Shown: positions 15,171-61,238, counted from the first letter of the stretch. The stretch: DNA of 64,000 nt from Acidimicrobiales bacterium (GCA_050633745.1 JBOEHD010000063.1:48346-112345); one strand, 5' to 3'. Notes: generated by a model from the letters alone, not told the origin. Translations and numbers: made by a program.

Positions 15171-15589
15171 TCAATGCCATCCTTATATACCCGGGGACGG
15201 AGACGTCCCACCATGTGCACGCAGCATGCTAGGTCAGGGCCCGGTGAGAATCCAGGGTCAGCTGGCAAGCTAGGACGATGACCCAAGCTGACATCTGGCG
15301 GTGGAGGCCAACTAGCTGTGGAAATCGGATCTAGAGATCGACCTCGGCCGGATCTGTGGATGACCGGCCGTCTGGCTGGCCCGGCCGTGTCACGCCGCCG
15401 ATGGCAACTTACTAGTTCTGTTACTTTCGATCGTCGTTTCGACGGGCGGCGCCAGCGACCGTAATCTAACCGTGGTATGCGGTGAGCGCCGTCGTCTCGT
15501 TCTGGACGTCTCAGGCTGACGAGTAACCTGCCCACCAAAACGTTGTTAGCAAACCATCTACTCAAGCTATGCAGTGACAGGAGCCCGAA

Positions 15590-16639: not shown

Positions 16640-16672
16640 TACCCGACCGCAAAGCAAACCAGAGGCTCGACC

Positions 16673-17587: not shown

Positions 17588-17661
17588 AACCACAGCTGGG
17601 TTACATGCGCTCGAAACCCCGCCGAAACCGGCCGGAAATCGAAGCGCCATAGCTTGAGTGC

Positions 17662-18732: not shown

Positions 18733-18758
18733 GTCATCCAGCCACCCAACCGCCCCGC

Positions 18759-35159: not shown

Positions 35160-35165
35160 CGTCGT

Positions 35166-46332: not shown

Positions 46333-47820
46333 CTACTCGAGCGTGCGGAATGTGATGTAACTCTCGCTGCCCGGGCGTGCGAAGTGCGGCGGGTCTCCGT
46401 GCCCGGTTACCACAAAACGCTCTCTGGCAATCCCGAAATCGACCAGCGCGTCGACCACCGCATCACCCTGGGTGTGGCTTAGATCATGATTCCGCTCACT
46501 CGTTGCTTCGGTGTAAGTATGAGCGGCGATTTCGACAGCAATGGTCGGGTCGATTTTCAGCGCTGTTGCGACGTCGGCCAACAATGCAAAGCTCGTTTCG
46601 GTGAGCTCGCCGGTACCGGGCTCGAAGTCGATGGCGTCGGTGTCGATCTGAGAAACAGCAACCGAAATGGCCGCGGGTAGACCGACTGCAATCTCGACCC
46701 TGGTTTCCAAGCCGGTGTCGATTGAGGTCTGCCCCATGCCGACTTCTGACAATCGCTCAGCGTCGGCTCCGGCTGCGGTCATGTAGGCGACGGCCTCATC
46801 CAAAATCTCGTGAGAAAGGTCATGGCTGCGGGCACGAGAGTCGGTGTAGGCATAGGCCAGCAACGACAGCGACGACGTGTTGCGCTCTGCCATCGCCTCG
46901 ATCGCCAGGTCGAGGTTTGCCGAAACCTCAGCGGTGAGTGCGCCGTCGGCACCAATCGCCGCGACGTTGGTATCCATGCCGGCCAACGCCGCGGCCAAGT
47001 CGGGATCGTCGGCTTCGAACAGCAGCAGGGTCTGCCCGTCCCGAGGACGGGCGACCGCGCTACCGAGACCGGTGGATGTCAATCGACCGGGATCGACGTC
47101 GGCGGCGATGAGGGCCTCGATGATCGACCGGGCCTGAAGCGTGCTCAAACCGTGGTTGTGACCTGGTGTTGACTGGGTGAAGGTTGCGACCTTCACCTCG
47201 GTGGGGATCAAGGGGTGCGCCTCGAGGATCGATGCGACTTCGTCAAGCACACCCTGACCGGCCTCGGTCAGCCGATCGGTGCCGGGGGAAAACTGAATAC
47301 CAGACAGGTCTATCGTCGCCAGCTGTGACTCCAGCGCCTCAAGCGATGATGACGAATCGAGCGAGGTCGTCGAGCCGCCAGCCTCGGTGGGCTGGGTGGT
47401 AGCGGGCTGGGTCGAGCTGGGTTGCTGGGTGGTAGAGACCTGCACCTCCGCGCTGCTCGACGGCGCAATCGCGCTCGCCGTCGCCGGATCATCGGCTGCA
47501 GGCTCGGCTGCCTCGTTTGATCGCTGGGTGCCAAGCCAATAGCCCCCGACGGCAGCGACAGCGATGCATGCCGCGACGAGCACCATAGGCACCACGCCGA
47601 CTCGCCGAGCCGAGTTGGCTGGAGCCGCGGCGGTATCGACGCCCCTTTGACCGGCTCCAGCGGCGGTAACTGGATCGGGGATACTCGACACCTCGATGCC
47701 GTGCCAGCCGCCTTCTTCGGGGAGGTCCTGACCCGAGAGTTCCTGGTCACCATCGGCCGGCAATACCTCACGAAGCAACCTGCCTAGATCATTTGTCTGA
47801 TCTTCTTCGGTCTGCCGCAT
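46333..47820 (-). CDS. Single-pass membrane protein with three tandem OmpA/MotB-like C-terminal domains
   Basis: TM segment VVPMVLVAACIAVAAVGGYWL and a Ser/Thr/Ala/Pro linker. Three repeats of the OmpA_C-type pattern follow (IQFSPGTDRLTEAGQGVLDEVASIL..., ...SHDLSHEILDEAVAYMTAAGADAERL..., IDFEPGTGELTETSFALLADVATAL...NHDLSHTQGDAVVDALVDFGIARERF). Confidence 0.8.
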   Translation of the reverse strand: MRQTEEDQTNDLGRLLREVLPADGDQELSGQDLPEEGGWHGIEVSSIPDPVTAAGAGQRGVDTAAAPANSARRVGVVPMVLVAACIAVAAVGGYWLGTQRSNEAAEPAADDPATASAIAPSSSAEVQVSTTQQPSSTQPATTQPTEAGGSTTSLDSSSSLEALESQLATIDLSGIQFSPGTDRLTEAGQGVLDEVASILEAHPLIPTEVKVATFTQSTPGHNHGLSTLQARSIIEALIAADVDPGRLTSTGLGSAVARPRDGQTLLLFEADDPDLAAALAGMDTNVAAIGADGALTAEVSANLDLAIEAMAERNTSSLSLLAYAYTDSRARSHDLSHEILDEAVAYMTAAGADAERLSEVGMGQTSIDTGLETRVEIAVGLPAAISVAVSQIDTDAIDFEPGTGELTETSFALLADVATALKIDPTIAVEIAAHTYTEATSERNHDLSHTQGDAVVDALVDFGIARERFVVTGHGDPPHFARPGSESYITFRTLE

Positions 47821-47985: not shown

Positions 47986-49287
47986 ATGAAACCAGCCCGC
48001 CGACCAAGGTGGCTCTTTGCCAGCCCCTTTGTGTTCTTCACGATCGCCGGGCTGGTTGGGATGCTGGCCATCGGTGGCGGCGGTCTCGTGGCATCGCAGC
48101 GGGCCGGTCGGGCCGAGGCGATGGCCGATGTCCGGGCGCTGACCCAGGTCGTGGCCAAGACCGTCGTCGAGCCGAATCTCACCGCCGAGCTGATCGCCGG
48201 AGACGAGGGAAATATCGCCGTGCTCGATGCGATCGTGACCGAGCGAGTCATCGATGACACCACGGTGCGGGTCAAGCTCTGGGACGCCAGCGGCAAGATC
48301 GTGTACTCCGATGAACCGCTGTTGATCGGCGAGGTCTACGAGCTTGAGGCCGACAAACATCGTTCGCTCTGGTCTGGCGAGACCGTTTCCGAGATCAGCG
48401 ACCTTCAAGGCCCGGAGAACCGTTTCGAGGCCCAGATGTCTAGCGAAATGATGGAGGTCTACCTCCCGATCGAAGGGCCGGATGGCGGTCCACTGCTCTA
48501 CGAGTCGTACTTTGCGATGTCGTCGGTTTCAGACTCGGCCAGCAGAATCCGAAGCGAGTTTTTGCCGATTATTGTCGTGCCGGTAGTCCTCATGGGGGGC
48601 CTACATTTTGCGCTGGTGTGGGGTCTGCGCCAACGGGTCCGCCGGGCGCAGGCCGAACGAGAGCGCCTGCTTCGCCGAGCGGTCGAGTCCTCAGATCTCG
48701 AGCGCCGCCGGATCGCCGCCGATCTGCACGACGGTGTTGTGCAGGATCTGGTCGGCACGTCGTTTGCCGTTTCCGCTGCCGCCGAGTCTGCCGCGGTTCA
48801 CGCCCCGGAACTGTCGAGCGACCTCCGCTCAGCCGCAGTCGGCACCAGGCGCAGTCTTCAATCGCTTCGCTCTCTACTGGTAGACATCTATCCTCCGAAC
48901 CTCCATGAACAGGGGCTCGAAGCGGCTCTTGTCGATCTCCTGGCACCGGCCAGAGACCTGGGTATCGAAACAGAACTGACGATCGATGGGGAACTCGAAG
49001 CGGCGCCGGAGAAGACCGCCCTGCTGTATCGGGTGATCCAAGAGTCGGTACGCAACGTGTTTAGGCACGCCAACGCCGATCATCTCAACGTTCATCTGGC
49101 GACAAACCCCGACGGCACGACGGTGGAGATCATGGACGACGGAGCGGGCTTTGTCTCGCCTCATCGCGAGAACGGCCATCTTGGACTACGCCTTTTGGCC
49201 GACCTCACCGCCGACGCTGGAGCTGGCTTCACCGTCGAGTCCGAACCGGGCGTCGGGACCACCATTCGTTTGGAGCTCACGTCATGA
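47986..49287 (+). CDS. Sensor histidine kinase, NarL-partner type (HisKA_3)
   Basis: Two TM segments flank a ~150 aa extracytoplasmic region. H-box RRRIAADLHDGVVQDL. HATPase N and G boxes (VRNVFRHANA, DDGAGF, GLRLLAD). Confidence 0.9.
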   Translation: MKPARRPRWLFASPFVFFTIAGLVGMLAIGGGGLVASQRAGRAEAMADVRALTQVVAKTVVEPNLTAELIAGDEGNIAVLDAIVTERVIDDTTVRVKLWDASGKIVYSDEPLLIGEVYELEADKHRSLWSGETVSEISDLQGPENRFEAQMSSEMMEVYLPIEGPDGGPLLYESYFAMSSVSDSASRIRSEFLPIIVVPVVLMGGLHFALVWGLRQRVRRAQAERERLLRRAVESSDLERRRIAADLHDGVVQDLVGTSFAVSAAAESAAVHAPELSSDLRSAAVGTRRSLQSLRSLLVDIYPPNLHEQGLEAALVDLLAPARDLGIETELTIDGELEAAPEKTALLYRVIQESVRNVFRHANADHLNVHLATNPDGTTVEIMDDGAGFVSPHRENGHLGLRLLADLTADAGAGFTVESEPGVGTTIRLELTS

Positions 49288-49916
49288 TCAGGGTTCTGGT
49301 GGTCGACGATCACACGATCGTCAGAGTCGGGTTGCAGAGGCTGCTCGAGCAGTCTTCCGATATCGAGATCGTCGGTGTCGCCGACCGCGGAGAACAGGCG
49401 GTGACCCTCGACGCCGAACTGGAGCCAGACGTCGTACTCATGGACCTCTCGATGCCAGGGCAGTCTGGCATCGAGTCGACCAGGAAGATCTGCGCCTCCC
49501 GCCAAGGCGCATCGGTGGTGATCCTCACCGCATCGACCGACCCAAACCAGATCGTCGACGCCTTCGATGCCGGCGCGGTTGGATACCTGGTCAAAGATTC
49601 CGACCCTCAGGTACTCGTCGAGGGCGTTCGGTCGGCAGCCAACGGTGACAGTCCACTCGATGCCCGAGCGGCGCGGTATCTGCTTCGAGGACGCCACACC
49701 AACCATCATTCAGCCAGCCAGCAACTGACCAAACGCGAGCGCGACGTCCTAGAACTGGTAAGCCGAGGGCTGGCAAACAAGGCGATCGCCCGCAGCCTCG
49801 GCATCAGCGAGAAGACGGTGAAGGCTCACTTGACCAGGGTTTTTGCGGCCATCGGTGTTAGCGACCGAACCCAAGCTGCGCTGTGGGCCAAGGAGCACCT
49901 CAGCCTCTCACCATGA
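49284..49916 (+). CDS. NarL/LuxR-family response regulator
   Basis: Receiver IRVLVVDDHTIVR...DVVLMDLSMPG. C-terminal HTH LTKRERDVLELVSRGLANKAIARSLGISEKTVKAHL. ATGA overlap with the kinase gene. Confidence 0.95.
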   Translation: MIRVLVVDDHTIVRVGLQRLLEQSSDIEIVGVADRGEQAVTLDAELEPDVVLMDLSMPGQSGIESTRKICASRQGASVVILTASTDPNQIVDAFDAGAVGYLVKDSDPQVLVEGVRSAANGDSPLDARAARYLLRGRHTNHHSASQQLTKRERDVLELVSRGLANKAIARSLGISEKTVKAHLTRVFAAIGVSDRTQAALWAKEHLSLSP

Positions 49917-50033
49917 CTCTCGCGCTGAATCTCGGTCCGAATCTCTCCGGGACCCCCATCTTGTACTCCCATGGTCCTAGGACCAATGTCCACTACCCCC
50001 ACCGTCGACGGCACGGTCAAGCTAAAAGGTGTA

Positions 50034-50341
50034 TGAACAAGACACCTTCGGTTCGCCGCCGGTCGCTTCGCTCAACCTCAGAGGCCTCCCTAATCGAGGG
50101 CTCAGTTTCATCGCGTTCGAGCGAACCGGATCTATCGGTGGAGATCTCGGGCGGCCCTGCCCGAGCGACCGTGCATGTGCGGGTAGCGGGGAGGCGCCCG
50201 CACCCCCTGGCCCTCGATGGATCCGGCTGTGGTCGCCTCCGGCTCCATCCTGAGGCCGGGGGTGCACCGGTCACCATCTTGTTCGATGACCTGGTGATCC
50301 TCCAGGGAACCACCCCACCGCCTAGCGGGACGGTCGGATGA
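50034..50341 (+). CDS. Possible small leader protein (about 102 aa) preceding the glycan operon
   Basis: ATG-initiated part of track ORF 49883-50341. It ends 13 nt before the GT start codon and has moderate GC3 bias. I recognise no domain, so the call is weak. Confidence 0.3.
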
Positions 50342-50354
50342 TGGGAGGTTGCAG

Positions 50355-51566
50355 GTGACACGCGTACTTATATACAGCCACGACACCTACGGCCTGGGGC
50401 ACTTCCGACGAAGCTCGCTGCTGGCATCTGGGGTTGTCGCAACCCACGCCGAGGCCGAAGTATTGATCGTCACCGGGTCGCCGAGAACCCAGTCGTTCCG
50501 CCTCCCCGATCGGGTAGACACCGTGAAGCTCCCGACTGCGACCAAAGACGGTAGCGGTCGCTATCGGGCTCGCAAGCTCAACATGGACCTGCAGTCGCTG
50601 GTGCGATTTCGTAGTGATCTAATCAGCACCACGATCAACAACTACCGGCCAGACGTCATCCTGGTAGACCACGCACCCCTCGGTATGAGCCGGGAGTTGG
50701 TACCGGCACTTGAACAAATCGGGCTTCGGCACAAGCGGCCCCGATTGGTTCTCGGTCTCCGCGACATTATCGATGAGGTCGGCCGGGTCGACGCCGCTTG
50801 GCACCGAGACGGCACCTGGGGCTGGATCGATGCCTACGACGAAGTCCTGGTCTATGGCGACCAGCGGCTGCAAACCACAGCGAGCGAGCTCGGACTGGCC
50901 CATCGCTCGACTACTCCGGTGCACCACACCGGCTATGTCGCGCCGGCCATGCCGGGGCCGACAACCGGCCAGCCGTTCCTGCTCGTCACCGCCGGTGGAG
51001 GCGGCGATGGACAAGCCATGCTTCGGGCCTACCTTGATGCCGTAGAGCACGGGGCGACCGAAGGCCTGAAGTCGGTCGTGGTCACCGGTCCCCTTCTGTC
51101 TCCGGGCAGGCGGGCGGAGTTGATGACTCGGGCGTCGCTGCTCCCCACGGTCGAAATCGTGGAGTTCACCGATCAACTTCGTCCACTCATCAGCTCGGCG
51201 GTCGGGGTGATCTCGATGGCCGGTTACAACACCGTTGTCGAGCTACTCGCTGCGAATACACCGGCACTGCTCGTGCCCCGCTGCGCGCCGCGATTGGAGC
51301 AGCATCTTCGGTCGGCCCGACTCGCCGCTGTCGTGCCACAGCTGCAGCACTGCCCGATCGAGATGCTCGACCGTGACCGGATCCGAGACTTCGTCACGAG
51401 CCGCTCAGCCAGCGCCGTCGAACCGCCGACGGTCAATCTCGCAGGTGTGGAGCGATCCGTGGAGCTGTTGTTGGGCGGCCTGTGTGCCGAACCCTCGAAG
51501 CTCGAACGCTCACCAGCGACAGAGACAAAGAGATCGGCCCTGATGGAAGGAGCCAACCATGGCTGA
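50355..51566 (+). CDS. GT-B glycosyltransferase (MurG/GT28-C-terminal-like)
   Basis: N-terminal VLIYSHDTYGLGHFRRS, a family signature I recall from uncharacterised MurG-like transferases. C-terminal MAGYNTVVELL. GTG at 50355 is preceded by GGGAGG. The track lists a TTG at 50349. Confidence 0.8.
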   Translation: MTRVLIYSHDTYGLGHFRRSSLLASGVVATHAEAEVLIVTGSPRTQSFRLPDRVDTVKLPTATKDGSGRYRARKLNMDLQSLVRFRSDLISTTINNYRPDVILVDHAPLGMSRELVPALEQIGLRHKRPRLVLGLRDIIDEVGRVDAAWHRDGTWGWIDAYDEVLVYGDQRLQTTASELGLAHRSTTPVHHTGYVAPAMPGPTTGQPFLLVTAGGGGDGQAMLRAYLDAVEHGATEGLKSVVVTGPLLSPGRRAELMTRASLLPTVEIVEFTDQLRPLISSAVGVISMAGYNTVVELLAANTPALLVPRCAPRLEQHLRSARLAAVVPQLQHCPIEMLDRDRIRDFVTSRSASAVEPPTVNLAGVERSVELLLGGLCAEPSKLERSPATETKRSALMEGANHG

Positions 51567-52788
51567 AGGTATGCACGTCGGCTACATCCTGAAGCAGTAT
51601 CCGCGGCTGTCGGAAACCTTTGTTCTGAACGAGATCCTGGGGTTGGAAGAGCAGGGTATAAAGACCTCAATCCACTCGTTGCGTCACGCTACGGAAGGAC
51701 GTTTCCACCCTGCAATTGGCAGGGTCAGGGGCCAGGTTCGCTATGTGTCCGATGTGAACAAGGCCAGTTTCCTCGATGCCATTCGTGCCCTGCCGAGGCT
51801 CCAGCAGCATCGACTGCCCGAGATCCTGGAGTTCCTCGATCATCTCCCTGAGGAACGTCGGGCCCGGCTTCTGCTGAACGCGATTGACGTCGCCGAGTCC
51901 GCACTCGACGCCGGGGTCAACCATCTGCACGCCCATTTCCTCACCGTCGCAGCACAGACCGCGTACCTCGTATCGCTGTTGACCGGGCTGCCGTATTCGA
52001 TCACCGCCCATGCCAAGGACATCTATCGCACATCGGTCGACTGGGAGTTGGCGGGACGCCTGGCCGGAGCGGCCTCAACTGTTGTCACCGTTTGTGATGC
52101 CAACCTGCGATTCCTGGCCCATCGTCTCGATGGCGCAAATGCACGATTGGTCCGTATCTACAACGGGCTTGGATCACAGCGGTCGAGCGAGCTGCAGCCG
52201 CCGGCCGAGTCCGCGGTTCGGCAATCCGACCTGGTGCTGGGGGTTGGGCGAATGGTTGAGAAGAAGGGCTTCGACCTACTCATCGAATCGATCGCTCTGC
52301 TGTCGGAGCACCAGGACGTGCGCTGCGTTCTTGTGGGTGATGGCGAGCGGCGGGCCGCCCTGGAAGCCCAGGCCACCATGCTCGGTATCGCCGACCGCGT
52401 CACCTTTGCCGGTGCCCTGGGACAGGACGAGGTCGCCCGCTGGCTCGATCGGGCTAGCCTGCTCGCCGCCCCGTGCCGGGTCGGGGGCGATGGAAATCAG
52501 GATGCTCTACCGACGGTGCTGCTTGAGGCCCTCCAGGCCGGAGTTCCCGCCATCTCGACACCGGTCGGCGGTATCGAGGAGATCGTCACCCACGGTCAAG
52601 AAGGACTGATCGTTCCGACCGAGGATCCGCAGGCACTGGCCGATGCGATCGGTTCGCTCCTGGCCAACCCACAGCAGCGGGTGCGCTTCGGGATCGCCGG
52701 GCAGGCGAAGGTGGCCAAAACGTTCGACCAACGGGTCACGATCGAAGAGCTGATAGATGTCTTCTATCAGCGCGAGCCGGTGCGATGA
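51559..52788 (+). CDS. Glycosyltransferase, GT4 / Glycos_transf_1 family
   Basis: GRMVEKKGFDLLIE, GDGERRAALE and EALPTVLLEALQAGVPAISTPVGGIEEIV (the EX7E region). Confidence 0.9.
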   Translation: MAEGMHVGYILKQYPRLSETFVLNEILGLEEQGIKTSIHSLRHATEGRFHPAIGRVRGQVRYVSDVNKASFLDAIRALPRLQQHRLPEILEFLDHLPEERRARLLLNAIDVAESALDAGVNHLHAHFLTVAAQTAYLVSLLTGLPYSITAHAKDIYRTSVDWELAGRLAGAASTVVTVCDANLRFLAHRLDGANARLVRIYNGLGSQRSSELQPPAESAVRQSDLVLGVGRMVEKKGFDLLIESIALLSEHQDVRCVLVGDGERRAALEAQATMLGIADRVTFAGALGQDEVARWLDRASLLAAPCRVGGDGNQDALPTVLLEALQAGVPAISTPVGGIEEIVTHGQEGLIVPTEDPQALADAIGSLLANPQQRVRFGIAGQAKVAKTFDQRVTIEELIDVFYQREPVR

Positions 52789-53888
52789 TCGGGCTCGACA
52801 TCGTTCAGGTCAACGCCGATCGGGGCATTGCTCCCGGGGCCACGAAGGGAGCGGCACTGCACCTTCGAGGTGTCGCCGCCGGCCTCGCAGCCTGTGGCCA
52901 CTCATTGCAGACCTATTCAGCTCGGTTGGCGGAGGGACCGTTCCCTGTTCCCGTGAAACCGTTGCACGAACTTGAAACCGTGACCGAGGCGGCGGTCGTC
53001 TATGAACGGTATTCACTAGGTCATCTCGGCGGCTTGGAGCTTGCTCGATCGCTCGATGTGCCGTTCGTCCTGGAGGTAAACGCACCGCTGGTCGATGAAG
53101 CGATCGCCCATCGGCCGGGCACGCTGCCACCGAACGCCGCTGACGTAGAAGAGAAGTTGCTCGCCGAGGCCGACCTGGTGATCACCGTTTCCACCGCTCT
53201 GTCGGAATGGGTGAGCACCAAACGGGACGGGCTGATCGAAACCATTGCGAACGGCTTCGAACCGAGCTGGTTTCCACCACCCAATCGAGCGGCGGCCGAG
53301 GCCGGTGGGGCCGATCAGCACATCGTGTTCCTGGGGCACCCAAAACCGTGGCACGGCGCTGAGCTCTTGGTCGACCTGCTGATCGATATGGCAGAGCTCG
53401 GCTACCGGCCACAACTGCTGGTGGTCGGTGGCGGTCCGGGAGCCGACACCCTCGTGGCTCGCGCTACCGAGCTCGGAGTCGGACAGCAGATCGTGGTCAC
53501 CGGGCCCACCGAACCGCATCGGGTGGCCGTTCATCTGGCAACCGCCGCAATTGGGCTGGCGCCCTACCCACGGCAAGACCCGTTCTACTTCTGCCCGCTC
53601 AAGATCGTCGACTATCTGGCTGCGGGGCTGCCGATAGTGGCCACCCGGCAAGGAGACATCGCCGAACTGGTGCAGGATGCTGGCCTGCTGGTTGAGCCCG
53701 ACGATCGAGCGGCGCTGGCAACCGCGGTGGCCGAATTGTTGGGCGACCGGCAACGGGCACGCACGATGGGCATCTCGGGACGGCGGCGGGCACTCACGGA
53801 GATGACGTGGCGACGTGTTGCCGAGATGACCGAGCAGGCGATCCTTCAGCTTCGCCACGAGTCGCTGCAGGCGGCATCCGGGCGGTGA
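52785..53888 (+). CDS. Glycosyltransferase, GT4 / Glycos_transf_1 family
   Basis: FLGHPKPWHGAELL, VGGGPG and FYFCPLKIVDYLAAGLPIVATRQGDIAELV. ATGA overlap with the upstream gene. Confidence 0.85.
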   Translation: MIGLDIVQVNADRGIAPGATKGAALHLRGVAAGLAACGHSLQTYSARLAEGPFPVPVKPLHELETVTEAAVVYERYSLGHLGGLELARSLDVPFVLEVNAPLVDEAIAHRPGTLPPNAADVEEKLLAEADLVITVSTALSEWVSTKRDGLIETIANGFEPSWFPPPNRAAAEAGGADQHIVFLGHPKPWHGAELLVDLLIDMAELGYRPQLLVVGGGPGADTLVARATELGVGQQIVVTGPTEPHRVAVHLATAAIGLAPYPRQDPFYFCPLKIVDYLAAGLPIVATRQGDIAELVQDAGLLVEPDDRAALATAVAELLGDRQRARTMGISGRRRALTEMTWRRVAEMTEQAILQLRHESLQAASGR

Positions 53889-55612
53889 GGTTACGCAGGC
53901 GGTCTCCCATCGACCTGGATCAATCCGAGCTGCGCCACGCGTTTACCGTGTTCCGACCGGCGCTGCGCGGGCAGTCACATCGTATGGCCGCCGCCCTCGG
54001 GTTGGCCCTCGGTGTGACCACGCTCGAGTTGCTGAAACCCTGGCCGATCACCCTGGCGCTCGACCACCTGATCGGCCAGGACGGAGCCTCCGTAGCCTTC
54101 ACCCCCATTGTGCTGTTCGCCGCGGCGGCGTTTGCCATCCCTGGATTTCTCGGGCTGCTAGGCGAACGGCTCCAGATCGTCATCGCTCAGATCAGCCGCA
54201 AGGCAACCGTGCGGATCAGGGCTGACGTCTTCGATCACATCCAGCGACTGGAGTTGGCAGAGCATCAAAAGCACTATTCCGGTGACCTCCTCATCCGCCT
54301 CATGGGTGACGTCAACATGATCCGAGATCTGCTGTTCCCCAGCTGGGTCACCCTACTGTCGAGAGGTTCGGTACTGATCGGTGGGGCGGTGGTGTTTGCC
54401 GTCGTCGAGTGGCGGCTGTTCGTCGTGGCGCTGGTTCCGCTGCCGCTGCTCTGGGTAAGCGTCGATCGCGGCTCGGCGGCGGTCAAGGCCGCGGCGGGCA
54501 AGCAACGTCGCAAGGAGGGGGCAATCGCCGCCCAGGCCGCTGAGACTCTGACAAGAGTCAGTCTTATCAAGGCCTTCAACGCTGAGGATCGGATCTCGCA
54601 CCGATTCCGCAGCCAGGCTCGCAGCGCCGAACGGGCCTCGATGGCCTCAACCAGGAAGTCGGCCCGTATGGCTAGCTTGAGCGAGCTCCTCACCGGAGCC
54701 GGTGTTGCCCTCGTGCTGCTCTTGGGCGCCCGCCGGGTCCAGGCTGGGCTGCTAACCCCGGGGCAGCTGATATTGGCCGTTTCGTACACCAGAATGATCT
54801 ACAAGCCCATTCGCAAGTTGACCGGCGAAGGCGCTCGACTAGCCAAGGCCACCGCCTGTGCGCTGCGGGTCATCGAGCTACTCGAGCGACCGGTCGAGGC
54901 TGGCGATCGAGGCAAACCGACATCGTCACTTGGCGGTGATATCGAATTCGTTGGCGTATCCCACCGCTACCCCGACGGCCGCCAGTCGCTCGACAAGCTC
55001 GACGCGGTCATCCCGGCTGATTCAATGACCGCAGTCGTCGGGCGAAACGGGAGCGGCAAGTCAACGATGATCGGACTACTGCTGCGGCTCCTCCGCCCCT
55101 CGGGTGGCAACGTCCATATCGGTGGTGTCGATGTCAGTACCTACCGACTCGACCAGTACCGCCAGCAGCTGGCCTACGTGCCTCAAGAGCTGACCCTGTT
55201 CGGCGGGACCATCCGGGAGAACATTGCGTTCGGCAAACCCGACGCCACTGACGCCGAGCTAACGATCGCAGCCGAGCTAGCGATGCTCGGCCCGGTGCTT
55301 GAGCGGTTGCCCAACGGCTTAGACACCGAGCTCGACGAGGGTGGCACCTCGCTCTCCGGTGGCGAGGCACGTCGGGTCATGCTGGCCAGGGCGGCGGTCC
55401 GCGATTCGTCGGTCATGCTGCTCGACGAGCCGCTGGTCGGCCTCGATCCGGCCGCTCGAACCACGGTGGCTCGGGCGATCAGCAGGGTGGCGCATGGCCG
55501 AACAACCGTAGTCATACACCATGGAGACCTCACCGACTTGGCCCCCGACTCCATCATCGAGTTGGACCCCGAAGACGCTGGTGGCCCTGAACTGAAGGTG
55601 GTTGCGACATGA
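53885..55612 (+). CDS. ABC exporter, fused TMD-NBD (MsbA/type-I exporter-like)
   Basis: Six-helix TMD, then Walker A GRNGSGKST, signature LSGGEARRV and Walker B MLLDEP. The in-frame GTG at 53885 overlaps the upstream stop (GTGA). I reject the track start at 53807. Confidence 0.9.
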   Translation: MRLRRRSPIDLDQSELRHAFTVFRPALRGQSHRMAAALGLALGVTTLELLKPWPITLALDHLIGQDGASVAFTPIVLFAAAAFAIPGFLGLLGERLQIVIAQISRKATVRIRADVFDHIQRLELAEHQKHYSGDLLIRLMGDVNMIRDLLFPSWVTLLSRGSVLIGGAVVFAVVEWRLFVVALVPLPLLWVSVDRGSAAVKAAAGKQRRKEGAIAAQAAETLTRVSLIKAFNAEDRISHRFRSQARSAERASMASTRKSARMASLSELLTGAGVALVLLLGARRVQAGLLTPGQLILAVSYTRMIYKPIRKLTGEGARLAKATACALRVIELLERPVEAGDRGKPTSSLGGDIEFVGVSHRYPDGRQSLDKLDAVIPADSMTAVVGRNGSGKSTMIGLLLRLLRPSGGNVHIGGVDVSTYRLDQYRQQLAYVPQELTLFGGTIRENIAFGKPDATDAELTIAAELAMLGPVLERLPNGLDTELDEGGTSLSGGEARRVMLARAAVRDSSVMLLDEPLVGLDPAARTTVARAISRVAHGRTTVVIHHGDLTDLAPDSIIELDPEDAGGPELKVVAT

Positions 55613-56892
55613 TTCATGATGCGCTTCGATCGCTGCTCGACGAGCAGCAGGCCACGCAGCAGCTGACCGATGCGGGCCTAGACCTCGCCATCGCAACGCC
55701 CGACTACGTTCGGTACAAGCCTAAACAGCCAACGATGATCGGCTATCGGTTCCTCAGCAGAGACGGTAGCGAAACAAGAGGCTACGCCGTGTGGTGCCCC
55801 GACCCGCCACGAGCCTCAGCCATCTACGACAAGGCGCTGTCGCTGCGGCCCCGCCGATCAGTCTTTGGGCCCGGCGTCATACGGCTAAACGACAACGCCG
55901 TGGTCTACGGTTTTCCAAACGATGCTCGCCTGCGCCGCCTTCGGTGGTACTCCCAGCCGCGAAAGATAAAGCGTTCGCTACACGGACTGCCGGGTCTGCT
56001 CGACGACATCTCATCGCACAGAACCAACGTCGAAGTTCTGAGGTACAAACCCGAGCGGCGAGTGGTTGTGCGCATCGACCTCGTTTCCCGGACTAGGCTC
56101 AAGATCCCGGTGGTCCTGCGATACACCACCGGACGGGATGCACCCTTGCTGGCGAAGACCGCCGAAGCGTTACGCCGTAACGGGGTGGCTACCCCTGCTC
56201 CGCTCGCGCAGATTGAGAACGGTCGGGTCGGGATCGACGAGTTTGCCGCAGGGGAGCAGTTGCGGTCAATCATCGATCGAGGTTTGGCCTCGCCTGCAGC
56301 AACAGCCGATGCGATCCAACACTTCCACCGCACCACCCCTCCATCAGGGACCGCCAAGCGCCTCATCGACGATGATCTGTTCCAGGCCCGGAAGGCTCTC
56401 TCCGGTCTCGCAGAGTTACATCCGTCGCTCGCCGGTCCGCTGGCGGCGCTGGCTCAGCGCCTCTCAAGAACCGCTCCCCACAACCCCGGCCCGTTGCGGC
56501 TCATCCATGGCGATCTTCATCCGAAGAACATCCTGGGAGATCCAACCGGGCACGACGACACCATCACATTCGTCGACCTTGAACGGGCTGCGGTGGGGCA
56601 GCCGGCAAGCGACCTTGGACGCTTACTAGGACACGCCAAGGCGCTTGAGATCCGGGACCCCGGCTCGTATGCGACGGCCACGGAGTTCGCCCAAACCGTG
56701 ATCGATCGCTATCGGGTCGGGGTTCCGATTCCCGACGCCGAACTCAGTTGGTACACCGCCATCGCGCTCATCGACCAAGCCACCCTCGTGGCCCGCCACC
56801 TCGAAGGCGACTGGCGCTGGTCGAGCGCATACCTGGCCGCAGCAGCATTTCGAGAACTGGCCACGACCTCCACTCGAAAGGAACTGGTGTGA
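55609..56892 (+). CDS. Protein-kinase-like (APH/ChoK family) phosphotransferase
   Basis: Catalytic loop LIHGDLHPKNIL followed by TFVDLER. N-terminal lobe LRYKPERRVVVR. ATGA overlap upstream. Confidence 0.75.
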   Translation: MIHDALRSLLDEQQATQQLTDAGLDLAIATPDYVRYKPKQPTMIGYRFLSRDGSETRGYAVWCPDPPRASAIYDKALSLRPRRSVFGPGVIRLNDNAVVYGFPNDARLRRLRWYSQPRKIKRSLHGLPGLLDDISSHRTNVEVLRYKPERRVVVRIDLVSRTRLKIPVVLRYTTGRDAPLLAKTAEALRRNGVATPAPLAQIENGRVGIDEFAAGEQLRSIIDRGLASPAATADAIQHFHRTTPPSGTAKRLIDDDLFQARKALSGLAELHPSLAGPLAALAQRLSRTAPHNPGPLRLIHGDLHPKNILGDPTGHDDTITFVDLERAAVGQPASDLGRLLGHAKALEIRDPGSYATATEFAQTVIDRYRVGVPIPDAELSWYTAIALIDQATLVARHLEGDWRWSSAYLAAAAFRELATTSTRKELV

Positions 56893-58187
56893 GCCGAAAC
56901 GCAGGGAGGCCTGCGATAGCGGTAGTCGGCGTGGGATACGTCGGGCTGACTTCGGCGGCATGTCTCGCCCACCTTGGCCTTGACGTGACCGCAATCGACA
57001 TCGACGAGAACAAAATTCGCCAGCTCAACGGCGGCTCTTCGCCGATCATGGAACTCGGCCTCAACCAACTTCTGGTCGCAGGACTTGCGTCGGGTCGATT
57101 ACGTTTCACCAGCGACTACGCGGCCACCGCCAACACCGACATCGTGCTGCTCTGCCTGCCAACACCGCACAGTGAACGCGAGAACGGGCCCGACCTTTCG
57201 GCGGTACGGGCGGCGGTGATGCGGCTACGGGAGCAACTCCCACTCGACGCCATCATCGTCACAAAGTCGACCGTGCCGGTAGGCACTCAGCGAGCGCTGC
57301 AGGAGCTCATAGAACGGCCCGATATTTCCGTGGCCTCGAATCCGGAATTCCTCCGGGAAGGCACCGCGGTCTCTGACTTTCTGGAACCGGATCGCATCGT
57401 GATTGGCGCCGATCACCAACCGGTCGCCGACCGGGTGGCCGGTATCTACCGCGGGATTACCGCGCCGATTACCTTCTGCGACCCGCTGTCGGCGGAGCTG
57501 ATCAAGTATTCGGCCAACAGCTTCCTGGCCACCAAGCTCTCGTACATCAACGAGCTAACCCGCCTCTGTGACCGCATCGGTGCCGACATCGAATCGGTGG
57601 CCGAGGGCATTGGTTCCGACCCTCGGATCGGGACGTCGTTCCTCGCCCCCGGGCCGGGATGGGGTGGCTCCTGTTTCCCAAAGGACACCCGGGCGCTCAT
57701 GCACCTGGCCAGACGAACCGGGCAGTACCTGCCGGTTATCGAGTCGGCATACCAGAGCAACCTCGACCAGCTGGATCACATCGCCGACCGGATCCAGCAA
57801 CTGTGCCCGACGCGACTCGATCGGGCCCGTATCGCAGTGTGGGGTGCCACGTTCAAGGCCGGCACCGACGACACTAGGCAATCTCCGGCGCTGCAGGTCA
57901 TCGACCGCCTAATCGATCGTGATGCCACAGTCGTGGTCTACGATCCGGCGGCCAAAACCGATGACCTCCCAGTCGTTGCGGCCCCAGACATCTATGCCGC
58001 CTGTGACGAGGCCGACCTGCTCGTAGTGCTGACCGAGTGGCCGGAGTTCGCCGACGCCGACCTAACCACGGTCGCTCAACGGCTCGCAGGCAAGACGATC
58101 TACGACACGCGGCAAATCGTCGACCCGGTGAAGGCCGCCGACGCCGGGTTGTATCTCGTGCAGCTCGGACGTCTTCCGGCGGCCTGA
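56889..58187 (+). CDS. ugd: UDP-glucose 6-dehydrogenase
   Basis: IAVVGVGYVGLTSAACLA Rossmann motif, NPEFLREGTAV and the catalytic GGSCFPKD. The in-frame GTG at 56889 overlaps the upstream stop. I reject the track start at 56748. Confidence 0.9.
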   Translation: MSRNAGRPAIAVVGVGYVGLTSAACLAHLGLDVTAIDIDENKIRQLNGGSSPIMELGLNQLLVAGLASGRLRFTSDYAATANTDIVLLCLPTPHSERENGPDLSAVRAAVMRLREQLPLDAIIVTKSTVPVGTQRALQELIERPDISVASNPEFLREGTAVSDFLEPDRIVIGADHQPVADRVAGIYRGITAPITFCDPLSAELIKYSANSFLATKLSYINELTRLCDRIGADIESVAEGIGSDPRIGTSFLAPGPGWGGSCFPKDTRALMHLARRTGQYLPVIESAYQSNLDQLDHIADRIQQLCPTRLDRARIAVWGATFKAGTDDTRQSPALQVIDRLIDRDATVVVYDPAAKTDDLPVVAAPDIYAACDEADLLVVLTEWPEFADADLTTVAQRLAGKTIYDTRQIVDPVKAADAGLYLVQLGRLPAA

Positions 58188-59224
58188 TGACCACTCTGTC
58201 GGGACCGGATGGAACGCAATCATCTGTGGGGTCGGGCCCTGCGTGGCTGGCGGCCTGGCCGATCGCTTACCCACACGTGCATCGGTCGTGGACCGTTCGC
58301 TCCCCCAACGGGGCGGCATGGGCGACGCTGACCCCCGAGACGGGCGAGGTCGAACCGGTAGAACCAGCTGGCGATCGGCGGTTGCCCGGCCTTGCGGTGG
58401 CCTTGAGATCCGGCCGCCTTGTGGCATACCGGGCGGGGCGACGAGCCGTCGTCAGATCCCAGCCCAGCCAGACGAAACCGGGCAGCTTTATCAAGGTGGT
58501 GCGACCCTCCCGGGTCGATGGCGTGGTCCGAACTCACCAACGACTTTTTGCCGCCAACCTGCCGGCCATGATCCCACGAGTCCTGCAGTTCGACGACGAC
58601 GGCCGGATCGGGTTGGAGGCACTGCCAGGGCCGTCGGTCCACGATCTGTTCCGATCGACGAGCCACCGGGAACCGTCGATTCCAGTCGAACAGATCGCCG
58701 AAGCCCTGTCGTGCGTTCACCGGATCGAGCCCGAGGGCAACCCGCGACCCGATGACCCACCGGAGAAGTGGGTCGCCATGGTCGGCCGAGCCGAACCGAA
58801 CATGATCGAGCCGCTACAGGAGGTGGCATCACAGCTGCCATCGCTCCCGGCAGCGGAGCCAGCGGTGATCCACGGTGATCTACACGACAAGAACATCCTG
58901 CTGGGCGAGCGATCGATCGCCCTGATCGACCTGGACGGCGTGAAGACCGGCGCCGCCGAAGATGAGCTGGCCAATCTTGGCGTGCACCTTCAGCTGCGCT
59001 GCCTACAATCCGGACGCCCGATTGCCTACGGGCAGTCGTTGGCGGCTCGCCTCTATCGGCGCTACGGCGAGATTCGAACGGTTTCACCTTCCAGGATCGA
59101 TGCCGCGGAACGTCACGTTTGGTTCCGCTTGGCTTGCCTTTATCGATTTCGGGTGAGCAGCAGACCGTTGGTGCCAGACCTTCTTCACCTGGCAGCAGGC
59201 GGCAGCCAGGCCAGCAGTCGCTAG
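58187..59224 (+). CDS. Protein-kinase-like (APH family) phosphotransferase, paralog of 55609-56892
   Basis: VIHGDLHDKNILL...ALIDLDG and an N-lobe LVAYRAGRRAVVR. The ATG at 58187 overlaps the ugd stop (TGATG). I reject the track start at 58037. Confidence 0.7.
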   Translation: MTTLSGPDGTQSSVGSGPAWLAAWPIAYPHVHRSWTVRSPNGAAWATLTPETGEVEPVEPAGDRRLPGLAVALRSGRLVAYRAGRRAVVRSQPSQTKPGSFIKVVRPSRVDGVVRTHQRLFAANLPAMIPRVLQFDDDGRIGLEALPGPSVHDLFRSTSHREPSIPVEQIAEALSCVHRIEPEGNPRPDDPPEKWVAMVGRAEPNMIEPLQEVASQLPSLPAAEPAVIHGDLHDKNILLGERSIALIDLDGVKTGAAEDELANLGVHLQLRCLQSGRPIAYGQSLAARLYRRYGEIRTVSPSRIDAAERHVWFRLACLYRFRVSSRPLVPDLLHLAAGGSQASSR

Positions 59225-60561
59225 CCGGAGCCGTTACCGGCTGTGCTGCCGGAGCCGTTACCGGCTGTGCTGCCGAAGTCATAGCCGGCTGTACCGTCGG
59301 CCAGCGGGAGTACGAGGGTGACTAGCGAGCCGCCAAGCTCGCCACTCCCGATCTCCAACTCGCCGCCCACGGCCTCAACGGTGCGCTTAGCGATCGACAA
59401 TCCCAGGCCGGTCGAGCCGCCGGTCGACGAACCGGTCGCCAGTTCCTCCGCTCGGATTCCGGTGCCACCATCCTCCACCCAGATCCGAGCCTGATCGCCC
59501 CAGCGGCCGAACCCGATGGCCAGCGGAATGCCTTCTTCGGTGTGGGCAAAGACGTTTTCCAGCAGCGTGTCGACCGCAGCCGCCAACTCCTGTTCAAGCA
59601 CCGCGACCGGCAGGTGGCCAACACTCTGCACGAATCGCCACGGCCGAGCTTGATCTTCGGCTAGTACCCGCCAGAACTCCGCTCTGTTAATGGTGACCGC
59701 GGCGGCGTCACAAACCGATTTGCCGCCGAGCGCTCCCCTGGCCTCGGCGATCAGCTCGTTGACCACAAGGGTCACATCGTCGAGATCGGCGGCTAACTCC
59801 TGAGCCAGCGCTGGATCGTCGACGTGCTCTATACGCATACGAAGCTTGGTCAAAGGAGTCCGCAGCCGGTGAGAGAGCTCGGCCACCAACTCACGTTCGC
59901 GGTTCAACATCTGGGTGATACGAGAGCCGAGGTCGTTGAACGACCCGCCGAGCTCAAGGAGTTCCGGCGGCCCATCGGGCACAACGGTGACGTCGAGGTG
60001 TCCGTCGCCGAGCCGGCGGGCGGCGGCAGCCAATTCTTCGGCGGGCCGCACGATGGTTCGAGCCAGGCGGTCGGCGACGATGACCGAGATGCCGACCAGC
60101 ACCGCACCGACCGCCGCCAGTGTCAACCAGGCCCGCCATTGCCCCCGCCAGAGAGCGTCGTTGTCGACGAACACCCGGATTGCCGAAATGGTCTCCGGCC
60201 CGGTAGCGACCGCCACCACCACCTCCGCTCCACCCGGCACCGGCCCGATCGCCGAGACCCCTTCCATCCGGGCTCGCTCAAGCCGAGCCGAGTCGCTGTC
60301 GGATCCGATGGACCACCCCTGCGAAGTCTCTATCGACATCCGGGCTTCACGCCCGGCGTTTGTGGTATTCATGGCCGACTCGATCTGGGCCCTGGTCCCG
60401 TCGGCAACCAGCGCAGGCACAACTGCTGAAGCGTCGGCGGTTGCGGCATCGATTGCCCGATCTTCGGCGGTCCGTCTGACCAAGAACCCCAGTGGCACGA
60501 CGAAGGCCACAACAATCAGCATTGATATTGCCACGAATACCGCAATCAGCTGACGCCTCAT
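59221..60561 (-). CDS. Sensor histidine kinase (HAMP + HisKA + HATPase), OmpR-partner type
   Basis: Two TM segments. H-box ELSHRLRTPLTKL. N/G boxes (LENVFAHT, EDGGTGI, GSTGLGLSI). The C-terminal tail is STAGNGSGSTAGNGSG. Confidence 0.9.
   Translation of the reverse strand: MRRQLIAVFVAISMLIVVAFVVPLGFLVRRTAEDRAIDAATADASAVVPALVADGTRAQIESAMNTTNAGREARMSIETSQGWSIGSDSDSARLERARMEGVSAIGPVPGGAEVVVAVATGPETISAIRVFVDNDALWRGQWRAWLTLAAVGAVLVGISVIVADRLARTIVRPAEELAAAARRLGDGHLDVTVVPDGPPELLELGGSFNDLGSRITQMLNRERELVAELSHRLRTPLTKLRMRIEHVDDPALAQELAADLDDVTLVVNELIAEARGALGGKSVCDAAAVTINRAEFWRVLAEDQARPWRFVQSVGHLPVAVLEQELAAAVDTLLENVFAHTEEGIPLAIGFGRWGDQARIWVEDGGTGIRAEELATGSSTGGSTGLGLSIAKRTVEAVGGELEIGSGELGGSLVTLVLPLADGTAGYDFGSTAGNGSGSTAGNGSG
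59224..59271. repeat. Perfect 24-bp tandem duplication at the 3' end of the kinase gene
   Basis: gccggagccgttaccggctgtgct occurs twice back to back (59224-59247 and 59248-59271). It encodes the duplicated STAGNGSG tail. Confidence 0.9.
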
Positions 60562-61238
60562 GTCGGATCGACCAGCTTGATGCCAACTCCTCGCACGGTG
60601 TGCAGATAGCGCGGCTCAGCTGCGGTCTCGCCCAGCTTGCGTCGCAACCAAGAAAGGTGGACATCGATCGTCTTGTCGGCCCCACCGTATGGCTCCCGCC
60701 AGACTTCGGCGTACAGCTCTTCTCGGGCTACGACCCGGCCGGCGTTGGCCACCAGATAGGCGAGAAGATCGAACTCCTTTCGATTGCACACCACATCGGC
60801 CCCATCGACTGTCAGGGTGCGAGATCGGGTGTCGACCGTCAGGCCACCGACCGTCAATACCCGGGCCCCTCCGCTGGCGGCGATTCGCCGCAGGATGGCC
60901 CGAAGGCGGGCTTCGAGTTCCGCTCCGGAGAACGGCTTGACCACATAGTCGTCGGCCCCTGCATCGAGCAGGCGGACGATCTCCGCATCATCATCCCTCG
61001 CGGTGGCGATGATGACCGGCACATCCGAAACGGCCCGAATCATGCGAAGAACATCTGACCCGTCGACATCGGGCAAACCCAGATCGAGAACAACAACATC
61101 GGGGCTCACATCGATGACCGACTGCAGCCCGGCCATGCCCGTCGATTCGGCACGAACGGCGTGCCCGGCGCCAGCCATAGCGCGGATCGCCAGCTCACGA
61201 ATTGTCAGATCATCTTCGATCACGAGCACCGATGCCAT
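60558..61238 (-). CDS. OmpR/PhoB-family response regulator
   Basis: Receiver VLVIEDDLTIRE...DVVVLDLGLPDVDG. Winged-helix output domain LTVDGADVVCNRKEFDLLAYL...IDVHLSWLRRKL. Confidence 0.95.
   Translation of the reverse strand: MASVLVIEDDLTIRELAIRAMAGAGHAVRAESTGMAGLQSVIDVSPDVVVLDLGLPDVDGSDVLRMIRAVSDVPVIIATARDDDAEIVRLLDAGADDYVVKPFSGAELEARLRAILRRIAASGGARVLTVGGLTVDTRSRTLTVDGADVVCNRKEFDLLAYLVANAGRVVAREELYAEVWREPYGGADKTIDVHLSWLRRKLGETAAEPRYLHTVRGVGIKLVDPT

Follow-up and report, generated by a model that had tools for sequence, protein, structure and literature searches.

The 64,000-nt stretch of DNA from the metagenome-assembled genome of an Acidimicrobiales bacterium (GCA_050633745.1 JBOEHD010000063.1:48346-112345; hereafter, the window) contains a locus encoding three glycosyltransferases, an ATP-binding cassette (ABC) exporter, a UDP-glucose 6-dehydrogenase (UGDH), and two kinases of the aminoglycoside phosphotransferase (APH) fold, flanked by two two-component systems. 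The identities and order of these genes had been proposed in an earlier description made from the nucleotide sequence only (the sequence-only reading), and our scans with Pfam and NCBIfam models bore them out. The features, with positions counted from the first letter of the window, are as follows.

47986-49287, + strand: HisKA_3-type sensor histidine kinase, encoded first in the NarL-type two-component system upstream (Pfam HisKA_3, HATPase_c)
49284-49916, + strand: NarL/GerE-type response regulator (Pfam Response_reg, GerE)
49973-49991, no strand: 19-bp motif GGTCCTAGGACCAATGTCC, candidate operator (conserved position, unique in the window)
50033-50341, + strand: g0, 102 amino acids (homologs in the same slot)
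50355-51566, + strand: g1, predicted GT-B glycosyltransferase of GT1/GT28 type (Pfam Glyco_tran_28_C, AlphaFold2 (AF2) model, Foldseek)
51559-52788, + strand: g2, GT4 glycosyltransferase, retaining GT-B (Pfam Glycos_transf_1)
52785-53888, + strand: g3, second GT4 glycosyltransferase (Pfam Glyco_trans_1_4, Glycos_transf_1)
53885-55612, + strand: g4, ABC exporter with fused transmembrane and nucleotide-binding domains (TMD-NBD; ABCB/type IV fold, half-transporter) (Pfam ABC_membrane, ABC_tran)
55609-56892, + strand: g5, kinase A, APH fold (Pfam APH, PF01636)
56889-58187, + strand: g6, UDP-glucose 6-dehydrogenase family (TIGR03026, three UDPG_MGDP_dh domains)
58187-59224, + strand: g7, kinase B, APH fold (Pfam APH, PF01636)
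59221-60561, - strand: HAMP-type sensor histidine kinase of the convergent OmpR-type system (Pfam HAMP, HisKA, HATPase_c)
60558-61238, - strand: OmpR-type response regulator (Pfam Response_reg, Trans_reg_C)

All six junctions of the seven genes g1 to g7 overlap. Read directly from the sequence, the ATG of g2 at 51559 precedes the TGA of g1 at 51564-51566; the junctions that follow are ATGA at 52785 (g2/g3), GTGA at 53885 (g3/g4), ATGA at 55609 (g4/g5), a GTG at 56889 overlapping the TGA at 56890-56892 (g5/g6), and TGATG at 58185-58189 (g6/g7). The sequence-only reading had reported overlaps at all junctions but one; the overlaps stood and the exception did not. The sole non-overlapping junction is the 13-nt gap between g0 and g1, and a GGGAGG lies 7 nt upstream of the GTG start of g1. 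The gene g0 is an eighth member that the earlier list did not contain, and its ATG at 50033 lies one base from the start coordinate of 50034 given previously. At the other end, CTAG at 59221-59224 is common to the convergent stop codons of g7 and the HAMP-type kinase gene, as had been noted. Within the upstream system, the start of the NarL/GerE regulator gene overlaps the stop of the kinase gene by 4 nt; the domain content confirmed both of the flanking two-component systems.

Across the locus, the GC content was 63-65%, the level of its surroundings in the window. Promoter-like and terminator-like sites inside the locus did not exceed shuffled expectation, and thus nothing in it pointed to two transcripts; separate transcripts for its two halves had been named in advance as evidence against a common function. 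A relative whose kinase A is approximately 47% identical showed the same 4- to 8-nt overlaps in the calls of an independent gene caller. These overlaps and the recurrence of the gene order across phyla agree with the single functional unit proposed earlier, and we regard g0 to g7 as one predicted operon of eight genes.

A profile of g5 homologs detected relatives in 252 of the species genomes scanned; 80 loci were kept and two were added from the protein collection, giving 82 loci (designated below by L numbers where needed), whose gene order was compared by tblastn with the window proteins. The core order of a GT1/28-like transferase, two GT4 transferases, an ABCB-type exporter, kinase A, and kinase B recurred in ten or more phyla, where identity to g5 was 25-48%. 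It was found in Acidimicrobiia, other Actinomycetota, Rubrobacter, Cyanobacteria (including Egbenema, Gloeocapsopsis, and Thermosynechococcus), Planctomycetota (including Lacipirellula limnantheis I41), Phycisphaerales, Ignavibacteria, Zixibacteria, Calditrichia, Gemmatimonadota, Rhodothermales, Acidobacteriota, Chloroflexi, and some Pseudomonadota; its carriers include soil, marine, hypersaline, and mat bacteria. The conservation of order that had been suggested as a check was therefore seen for the core, which in most loci lacks the UGDH gene. In a strict positional test requiring all four genes upstream of kinase A, and restricted to loci with at least 6.2 kb of upstream sequence, 41 of 55 loci passed; the failures were mostly insertions or frameshifts, and only two loci were true orphans. 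Cultured carriers of the cassette include Rubrobacter radiotolerans and strains of Gloeocapsopsis and Lacipirellula, and for cultured Chlorogloeopsis, Nodularia, and Thiocapsa species just a relative of the kinase is known so far.

The sequence-only reading had not recognised the gene set as a described pathway, and our searches agreed with it: no curated family, source annotation, or publication was found for the set. The source annotations of the cassette proteins are generic names, none of the core proteins reached the cut-off of a curated NCBIfam equivalog, no characterised exopolysaccharide (EPS) or glycolipid cluster was found in synteny with the cassette, and keyword searches of open-access full texts returned no paper describing it. 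With the PADLOC defence models, the ABC protein alone gave generic ATPase matches, and the kinases and glycosyltransferases matched nothing. Separately, a protein with CHAT and TPR domains and a subtilase (S8) adjoin the cassette in five loci of different phyla (L019:12415-16682, - strand; L025, L037, L040, and L052). We considered a defence system in view of weak TCAD9 matches and these nearby CHAT and subtilase genes, and rejected it on the negative PADLOC result and the presence of the CHAT/S8 pair in five loci only.

The kinase pair is the most distinctive part of the cassette. Both proteins scored above the Pfam APH cut-off of 23.2 bits (g5, 64 bits; g7, 38 bits), and kinase A carries an additional N-terminal domain of approximately 95 residues that kinase B does not have. 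Neither family has lost its catalytic lysine, HxD loop, or Mg-binding aspartate: K147, H300, D302, and D323 of kinase A were invariant in 79 of 79 homologs, and H229, D231, and D248 of kinase B were present in 72 of 72, with K103 in 71 of 72. The scores and catalytic residues place g5 and g7 within the APH/protein-kinase-like fold, which the AF2 model of g5 also adopts (mean predicted confidence, pLDDT, 92.9). The best structural matches of g5 in the PDB were maltokinases, over the full length, followed by PsiK, choline/ethanolamine kinases, and APH enzymes, with TM-scores of approximately 0.5 and 14-18% identity; profile searches of the PDB with the kinase families gave weak matches only, of 45 bits or less. 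Alignment of the two families with hhalign extended over 315 columns (probability, 99.9%; E, 2.7e-35), and the motifs FPxDxRL and Y(K/R)P(E/G)RR are common to both. On this comparison, kinases A and B are clearly ancient paralogs, and the earlier description of two paralogous APH-like kinases was borne out by hhalign and Pfam together.

At the domain level, two adjacent kinase domains were detected in 72 of the 82 loci, the single cases lying mostly at contig edges, and in approximately 19 of the 82 both domains occupy one open reading frame (ORF). The fused protein of approximately 800 amino acids is exemplified by L067:9818-12250 from L. limnantheis I41, and fusions also occur in L017, L024, L036, L043, L044, L050, L058, L063, L070, L073, and L077-L082. 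An exhaustive search with the kinase A profile in a library of 1.84 billion proteins yielded 1,604 clusters (50% identity; E of 1e-30 or less), and the best 150 of these were mostly proteins of approximately 750-830 amino acids with two matched stretches. Since most close family members are fused, the split pair in the window is a variant of what is usually a single two-domain protein. Two proteins of approximately 1,350 amino acids (P0379 and P0407), which combine two kinase domains with DUF5666 and Alginate_exp domains, were set aside as probable read-through or gene-calling artefacts because the joining of a cytoplasmic kinase to an outer-membrane barrel is topologically implausible. They still confirm that the kinase and barrel genes are adjacent.

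Comparisons with characterised kinase families were negative. The protein g5 had no NCBIfam match at all, and g7 reached only 20 bits on the resistance model APH_3p (cut-off, 205). Neither kinase matched the maltokinase (Mak) models (TIGR02457 TreS_Cterm, Mak_N_cap), on which the fused L067 homolog scored 27 bits (cut-off, 375), and neither TreS nor GlgE was encoded in any locus. No match of g5 or g7 to the WaaP/Kdo kinase family (PF06293) or to CotS (TIGR02906) was seen at E of 0.001 or less. The kinases of the window did not match LxmK, the kinase of class V lanthipeptides, the L067 fusion scored 80 bits on it (cut-off, 315), and the loci contain no lyase or conserved precursor gene. The features of WbdD-type enzymes were likewise missing: we found no methyltransferase domain and no Wzm/Wzt, and WbdD was not among the PDB matches at E of 1 or less. 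In a plasmid collection, g5 gave a single weak match of no informative value. As judged from these profiles, kinases A and B form a distinct subfamily of small-molecule-type kinases.

For g1, Pfam gave a partial match to Glyco_tran_28_C (PF04101; residues 261-311, 31 bits), and only this partial match was found of the PF03033 and PF04101 pair required for GT28. The best Foldseek matches of its AF2 model (pLDDT, 88.6) in the PDB were plant UGT72, OleD, and CalG3; MurG came 14th, although its E-value was similar. The label "MurG-like" given earlier was therefore sound as to the GT-B fold and overstated as to MurG, since small-molecule UDP-glycosyltransferases (UGTs) of GT1 and macrolide glycosyltransferases match slightly better. 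From the domain match and the predicted model, g1 can safely be assigned to the GT-B enzymes of GT1/GT28 type, and it probably starts the glycan on an acceptor; its N-terminal acceptor domain contains invariant basic residues (R18, R19, K64, and R86). The two GT4 assignments were corroborated by scores on Glycos_transf_1 (PF00534) above the gathering cut-off of 26.4 bits (g2, 130 bits; g3, 61 bits), and g3 also gave 74 bits on Glyco_trans_1_4. No NCBIfam equivalog was reached by either GT4, the best being EpsE (g2, 167 bits; cut-off, 400). The closest solved relatives, at 68 bits or less, were BshA-like enzymes, PimB', and a sucrose-phosphate synthase for g2, and the sucrose-phosphate synthase Tll1590, MshA, and GlgM for g3.

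The Walker A, signature, Walker B, and H-loop residues of g4 are conserved in 72 cassette homologs. Its scores on the MsbA models TIGR02203 and NF008381 were 287 bits (cut-off, 602) and 204 bits (cut-off, 867), respectively, and it reached 204 bits on the glucan-exporter model (cut-off, 733) and 117 bits on PglK (cut-off, 1000). The exporter had been called MsbA-like, which holds at the level of the ABCB fold and not for MsbA itself. From its Pfam domains and PDB matches, we therefore describe g4 as a predicted generic ABCB-type half-transporter with intact ATPase motifs. Membrane segments were predicted only in g4, whereas all of the enzymes were predicted to be soluble; cytoplasmic assembly followed by ABC export, as suggested previously, is thus a reasonable order of events. 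Domain scans of 45.5-63.5 kb of the window also upheld the reported absence of Wzx/Wzy/Wzz, priming transferase, and acyltransferase genes. Domains of Wzx/Wzy, co-polymerases, processive GT2 synthases, Wzm/Wzt/KpsMT, and polyprenyl-phosphate priming transferases were found neither in this interval nor in the conserved part of the related loci.

Around this core, the composition of the loci varies. The UGDH identity of g6 is well supported, with 430.8 bits on TIGR03026 (cut-off, 189.8) and all three UDPG_MGDP_dh domains present. The substrate-specific equivalogs TuaD (352 bits; cut-off, 700) and AglM (343 bits; cut-off, 670) were below cut-off, which leaves UDP-glucose as the likely substrate. 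A UGDH gene was found in eight of the 82 loci and was missing from the other 74. It lies between the kinase genes only in the window, L001/L012, L004, L005, and L013, all from Acidimicrobiia, and upstream of g1 in L018, L020, and L051, from Ignavibacteria and Zixibacteria. Of the glucuronic acid component of the sequence-only reading, the identity of the enzyme thus held, and its place as a core feature did not. The product of g0 has a basic N-terminus, no Pfam match at threshold, and no membrane segment, and the GC content of its third codon positions (GC3) is 0.66; homologs with 36-43% identity lie between the regulator gene and g1 in four Acidimicrobiales loci (L001/L012, L006, and L009). 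UGDH, g0, and both two-component systems are lineage-specific additions. We also considered g0 as the precursor of a peptide made by ribosomal synthesis and modified after translation (RiPP), acted on by LxmK/TvaC-like kinases. This idea was rejected, g0 being confined to a few Acidimicrobiales, with no lyase present and LxmK far below cut-off.

In diderm loci, a gene for an outer-membrane barrel directly follows the kinase genes on the same strand. Three kinds were seen: Alginate_exp with DUF5666 (AlgE-like), an OprB/SomB-type porin in Cyanobacteria, and a small EpsL/PEP-CTERM-like barrel; examples are L020:12583-14391, L026:12377-13930, L044:7523-8527, and L022:11209-12588. Apparently, diderms have taken up different channels for one and the same role. 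No periplasmic adaptor was present. A Sulfotransfer_3 gene lies between the exporter and the kinases in L050:5851-6819, L070, L073, L079, and L081 (Rhodothermales, Planctomycetota, and others), which hints that the products of these loci are both sulfated and phosphorylated. Replacement of the second kinase by the sulfotransferase was rejected, as the domain-level scan still found two kinase domains in those loci.

The adjoining regulatory genes differ between lineages. The NarL-type regulator of the window scored 175 bits on NCBIfam NarL (cut-off, 250), and its system adjoins the cassette in ten related Acidimicrobiia loci, with a conserved sensor region. The OmpR-type system accompanies the cassette in five Actinomycetota loci, convergently in L002, L006, L007, and L013 and upstream in the same direction in L016; the OmpR-type regulator of the window is 75-79% identical to the cassette-adjoining regulators of L002, L006, L007, and L013. 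Sensor domains of both systems matched within Actinomycetota only. Clustering by BLAST had raised the possibility of a sensor kinase common across phyla, which we rejected because the similarity was confined to the core domains. Cyanobacterial cassettes have an unrelated kinase and OmpR regulator upstream, an NtrC-type regulator is found with the cassette in Ignavibacteria, Zixibacteria, Calditrichia, and Gemmatimonadota, and no adjoining two-component system was seen in Planctomycetota. At the C-terminus of the HAMP kinase of the window, a tandem peptide repeat (GSTAGNGSG GSTAGNGSG) is encoded right before the shared CTAG (59221-59300, - strand).

The motif GGTCCTAGGACCAATGTCC lies between the stop codon of the NarL-type regulator gene and g0 and includes the perfect 12-bp palindrome GGTCCTAGGACC. 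It occurs once in the window, where 0.02 occurrences are expected, and was found in the same position in L001, L002, L005, and L009; L013 carries a variant form there, and L011 has the motif upstream of the kinase gene. The adjacent NarL-type regulator probably uses the motif as its operator.

These results point, with a probability of about 0.5, to a self-contained, regulated cytoplasmic line for the assembly and export of an anionic glycan or oligosaccharide. In the scheme that follows, the substrate, the phosphate on the product, the order of the steps, any aglycone or lipid anchor, and the regulation are our inference; the small glycoconjugate put forward earlier likewise stays a putative product. 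With common nucleotide sugars, the GT1/GT28-type enzyme g1 and the two GT4s would put together either a short glycan or one made of a repeated short unit, and in this lineage UDP-glucuronic acid would be supplied by the operon's own UDP-glucose dehydrogenase. The paralogous kinases, acting as one two-domain unit, would then place phosphate on sugar hydroxyls, and a homodimeric ABCB-type exporter would carry the product over the cytoplasmic membrane. In the diderm relatives, the dedicated outer-membrane barrel would release it, a step that this monoderm actinobacterium would not need. Expression would probably be set by the NarL-type regulator through the 19-bp site before g0; the convergent OmpR-type system would provide a second input, conserved in the lineage.

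An exported, negatively charged carbohydrate appears to be the most economical product because the barrels are of carbohydrate types, periplasmic adaptors are absent, and UGDH or sulfotransferase genes occur occasionally. The hints of a negative charge are the kinases in every lineage, UGDH in some loci, and Sulfotransfer_3 in others; AlgE-type barrels are known for a polyanionic polymer. Several points weigh against this interpretation. In every carrier found, the cassette is known from its genes alone, and it encodes no priming enzyme or known acceptor. The cargo of ABCB-type exporters is mostly amphipathic or linked to a lipid, a point in favour of a glycolipid and against a soluble glycan. 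The solved relatives of the GT4s include enzymes with phosphosugar acceptors (sucrose-phosphate synthase, MshA, and GlgM), and APH-fold sugar kinases of known substrate are mostly anomeric (C1) kinases, such as Mak, MtnK, and NahK; together these would fit kinases that act before the transferases. Finally, the adjoining two-component systems are of different, non-orthologous types, and Planctomycetota have none.

In the strongest rival reading, free sugars are the substrates of the kinases, which would phosphorylate them, probably at the anomeric position; two kinases would feed two GT4s, and the GT4s would use the resulting sugar phosphates as acceptors, as in the synthesis of sucrose-6-phosphate, GlcNAc-Ins-P, and maltose-1-phosphate, or even as donors; the phosphate may or may not then survive export. 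Among structures matched over the full length, kinase A is indeed most similar to maltokinases, which are maltose 1-kinases, and methylthioribose kinase is among the sequence matches. Tll1590, MshA, and GlgM, the solved relatives cited above for g2 and g3, are GT4s with phosphosugar acceptors, two kinases accompany two GT4s in almost every locus, and the invariant R18, R19, K64, and R86 lie in the acceptor domain of g1. However, the similarities to Mak, sucrose-phosphate synthase, MshA, and GlgM are weak (60 bits or less, TM-scores of approximately 0.5) and generic to the folds, and the cassette has no conserved phosphatase, pyrophosphorylase, or GlgE-type polymerase. The fusion of the kinases is easier to explain if both act on one substrate, and the sulfotransferase that some cassettes contain suggests that a glycan is decorated late; we consider this order of events rather unlikely. 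Ranked next, and somewhat more doubtful, is a surface phosphoglycolipid, in which g1 would glycosylate a membrane lipid (diacylglycerol, polyprenyl phosphate, or another), g2 and g3 would extend it, the kinases would phosphorylate it, and the ABC protein would flip it in the manner of MsbA or PglK. The nearest structures to g1 act on lipophilic acceptors or lipid I (GT1 UGTs, macrolide glycosyltransferases, and MurG), and the GT28 family also includes monogalactosyldiacylglycerol synthases. Moreover, g2 resembles PimB' and PimA, which act on phosphatidylinositol, and the top curated matches of the exporter are MsbA models. These models were, however, far from their cut-offs, as was PglK, and the cassettes of diderms are followed by porin-like or AlgE-like barrels, not by Lpt-like or lipid-transfer parts. 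There are no conserved genes for lipid synthesis or acyl transfer, and the glycosyltransferases have no membrane segments, although they may bind the membrane peripherally.

A secreted bioactive pseudo-oligosaccharide, on which phosphorylation would serve as a tag for self-protection or export, as in aminoglycoside producers, whose fused ABC exporters carry out an inactive phosphorylated form, streptomycin-6-phosphate, is improbable. Aminoglycoside clusters repeatedly contain GT4 enzymes, APH-fold kinases, and fused ABC exporters, the best PDB sequence matches of both kinase families are APH(3') enzymes (E of approximately 1e-9 to 1e-11), and the distribution of the cassette is sporadic and horizontally scattered. 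Against these stand the resistance-APH models of NCBIfam, which the kinases did not reach, and the absence of a conserved cyclitol synthase, aminotransferase, dehydrogenase, or extracellular phosphatase. The order kept across monoderms and diderms, the dedicated barrels, and the envelope-type two-component systems look more like an envelope or matrix function. We give even less weight to the idea that the APH-fold proteins are regulatory protein kinases that phosphorylate the transferases, UGDH, or the exporter to set flux, as bacterial tyrosine kinases (BY-kinases) do on Ugd in other EPS systems. YihE/SrkA, LxmK, and TvaE were among the weak matches, some bacterial proteins resembling APH or eukaryotic-type protein kinases act on proteins or peptides, the UGDH gene of the window lies between the kinase genes, and a protein-kinase-like gene occurs in an Actinoplanes EPS cluster (PMC13390465). 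Nevertheless, UGDH is absent from most cassettes and so cannot be a conserved target, small-molecule and sugar kinases, not protein kinases, are nearest in structure and sequence, and there is no obvious reason for two paralogous catalytic domains of a regulator to stay fused across phyla. The chance placement of resistance APH genes beside glycosyltransferase genes has in its favour only the generic source name "aminoglycoside phosphotransferase family protein". It is contradicted by the ordered co-occurrence of the kinases with the transferases and exporter in the phyla listed above, by the stop/start overlaps, and by the low scores on the resistance models, and is extremely improbable; given this co-conservation, seen also in the strict positional test, the kinases are not stray resistance genes; that they might be had been named by the sequence-only reading as evidence against it.

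Returning to the exported anionic glycan, we put forward more tentatively, as a possibility that we hold with clearly less confidence, that the cassette represents an undescribed, phylum-spanning route to a secreted phosphoglycan or phospho-oligosaccharide. Its hallmark would be tandem, often fused, APH-fold sugar kinases with three GT-B enzymes, an ABCB exporter, and, in diderms, an outer-membrane channel. In the boldest version of this route, the kinases would make sugar-1-phosphates that are used directly by the GT4s, and nucleotide sugars would not be needed for part of the assembly.

Of the systems described so far, the nearest in logic is that of WbdD in the ABC-transporter-dependent synthesis of the Escherichia coli O9a antigen. 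That system likewise combines cytoplasmic assembly by GT4s with a kinase of protein-kinase/APH-like fold that acts before ABC export, without Wzx/Wzy (PMC3482155). There, WbdD is a single kinase with a methyltransferase and a coiled-coil ruler, the transporter is Wzm/Wzt, and synthesis starts on undecaprenyl phosphate via WecA (PMC3482155); the cassette, in contrast, has two paralogous kinases without a methyltransferase, a fused ABCB-type half-transporter, and no encoded priming enzyme. The NdvA/ChvA exporters of cyclic beta-glucan and the glycolipid flippases PglK and MsbA share the fused TMD-NBD ABCB-type architecture for cargo made in the cytoplasm, but these systems include neither the kinases nor such a group of transferases. 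Over its full length, kinase A is structurally closest to maltokinase (Mak/Pep2) of the GlgE alpha-glucan pathway (Foldseek E, 1e-11), and both are APH-fold sugar kinases that have an additional N-terminal domain; however, the TM-score is approximately 0.49 at 14-16% identity, and TreS, GlgE, and GlgB are missing from the cassette. The spore-crust genes ytcA-ytcC-cotSA-cotS of Bacillus subtilis bring together a UDP-glucose dehydrogenase, GT4s, and the APH-fold kinase-like CotS. They include no ABC exporter and no tandem kinase pair, and g5 and g7 did not match TIGR02906, the sole model compared. The str/sts clusters for streptomycin combine GT4s, APH kinases, and fused ABC exporters, and their product is exported in phosphorylated form. 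The cassette differs from aminoglycoside clusters in lacking cyclitol and aminosugar genes and in being conserved across many phyla of non-producers. An Actinoplanes Wzx/Wzy EPS cluster that contains a protein-kinase-like gene of unknown role (PMC13390465) shows that glycan loci with kinases of this kind are starting to receive attention. The defining novelty of the cassette is thus a tandem APH-fold kinase module within the known scheme of cytoplasmic glycan assembly and ABC export.

That a gene set so conserved has no assigned product shows that the inventory of envelope and matrix glycans in bacteria is incomplete. Should the kinases phosphorylate the glycan, they would provide a general kinase route to anionic extracellular carbohydrates, beside uronic acids, sulfation, and phosphodiester polymers, and a phosphorylated product would be relevant to the tolerance of desiccation and salt, to the binding of metals, and to the matrices of biofilms. 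That different two-component systems have been recruited time and again suggests that the response is inducible. The fused two-kinase protein offers a simple marker for finding the system, and the cultured carriers allow direct testing.

Elsewhere in the window, the gene just upstream of the NarL-type system (46333-47820, - strand) specifies a 495-amino-acid protein that has peptidoglycan-binding domains of the OmpA family, in what is a monoderm. At 15164-20102 (- strand), two large ORFs of 849 and 380 amino acids without a Pfam match lie beside a gene for a 447-amino-acid protein with a C-terminal HNH nuclease domain; the GC3 of 0.62-0.67 in this region is below that of neighbouring genes, and the region may therefore be a mobile or defence-related island. 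The A and B subunits of a hydantoinase/oxoprolinase and an AMP-binding enzyme are encoded at 33585-38836 (- strand), within a minus-strand run of approximately 23-40 kb, and these genes belong to ordinary metabolism unrelated to the cassette.

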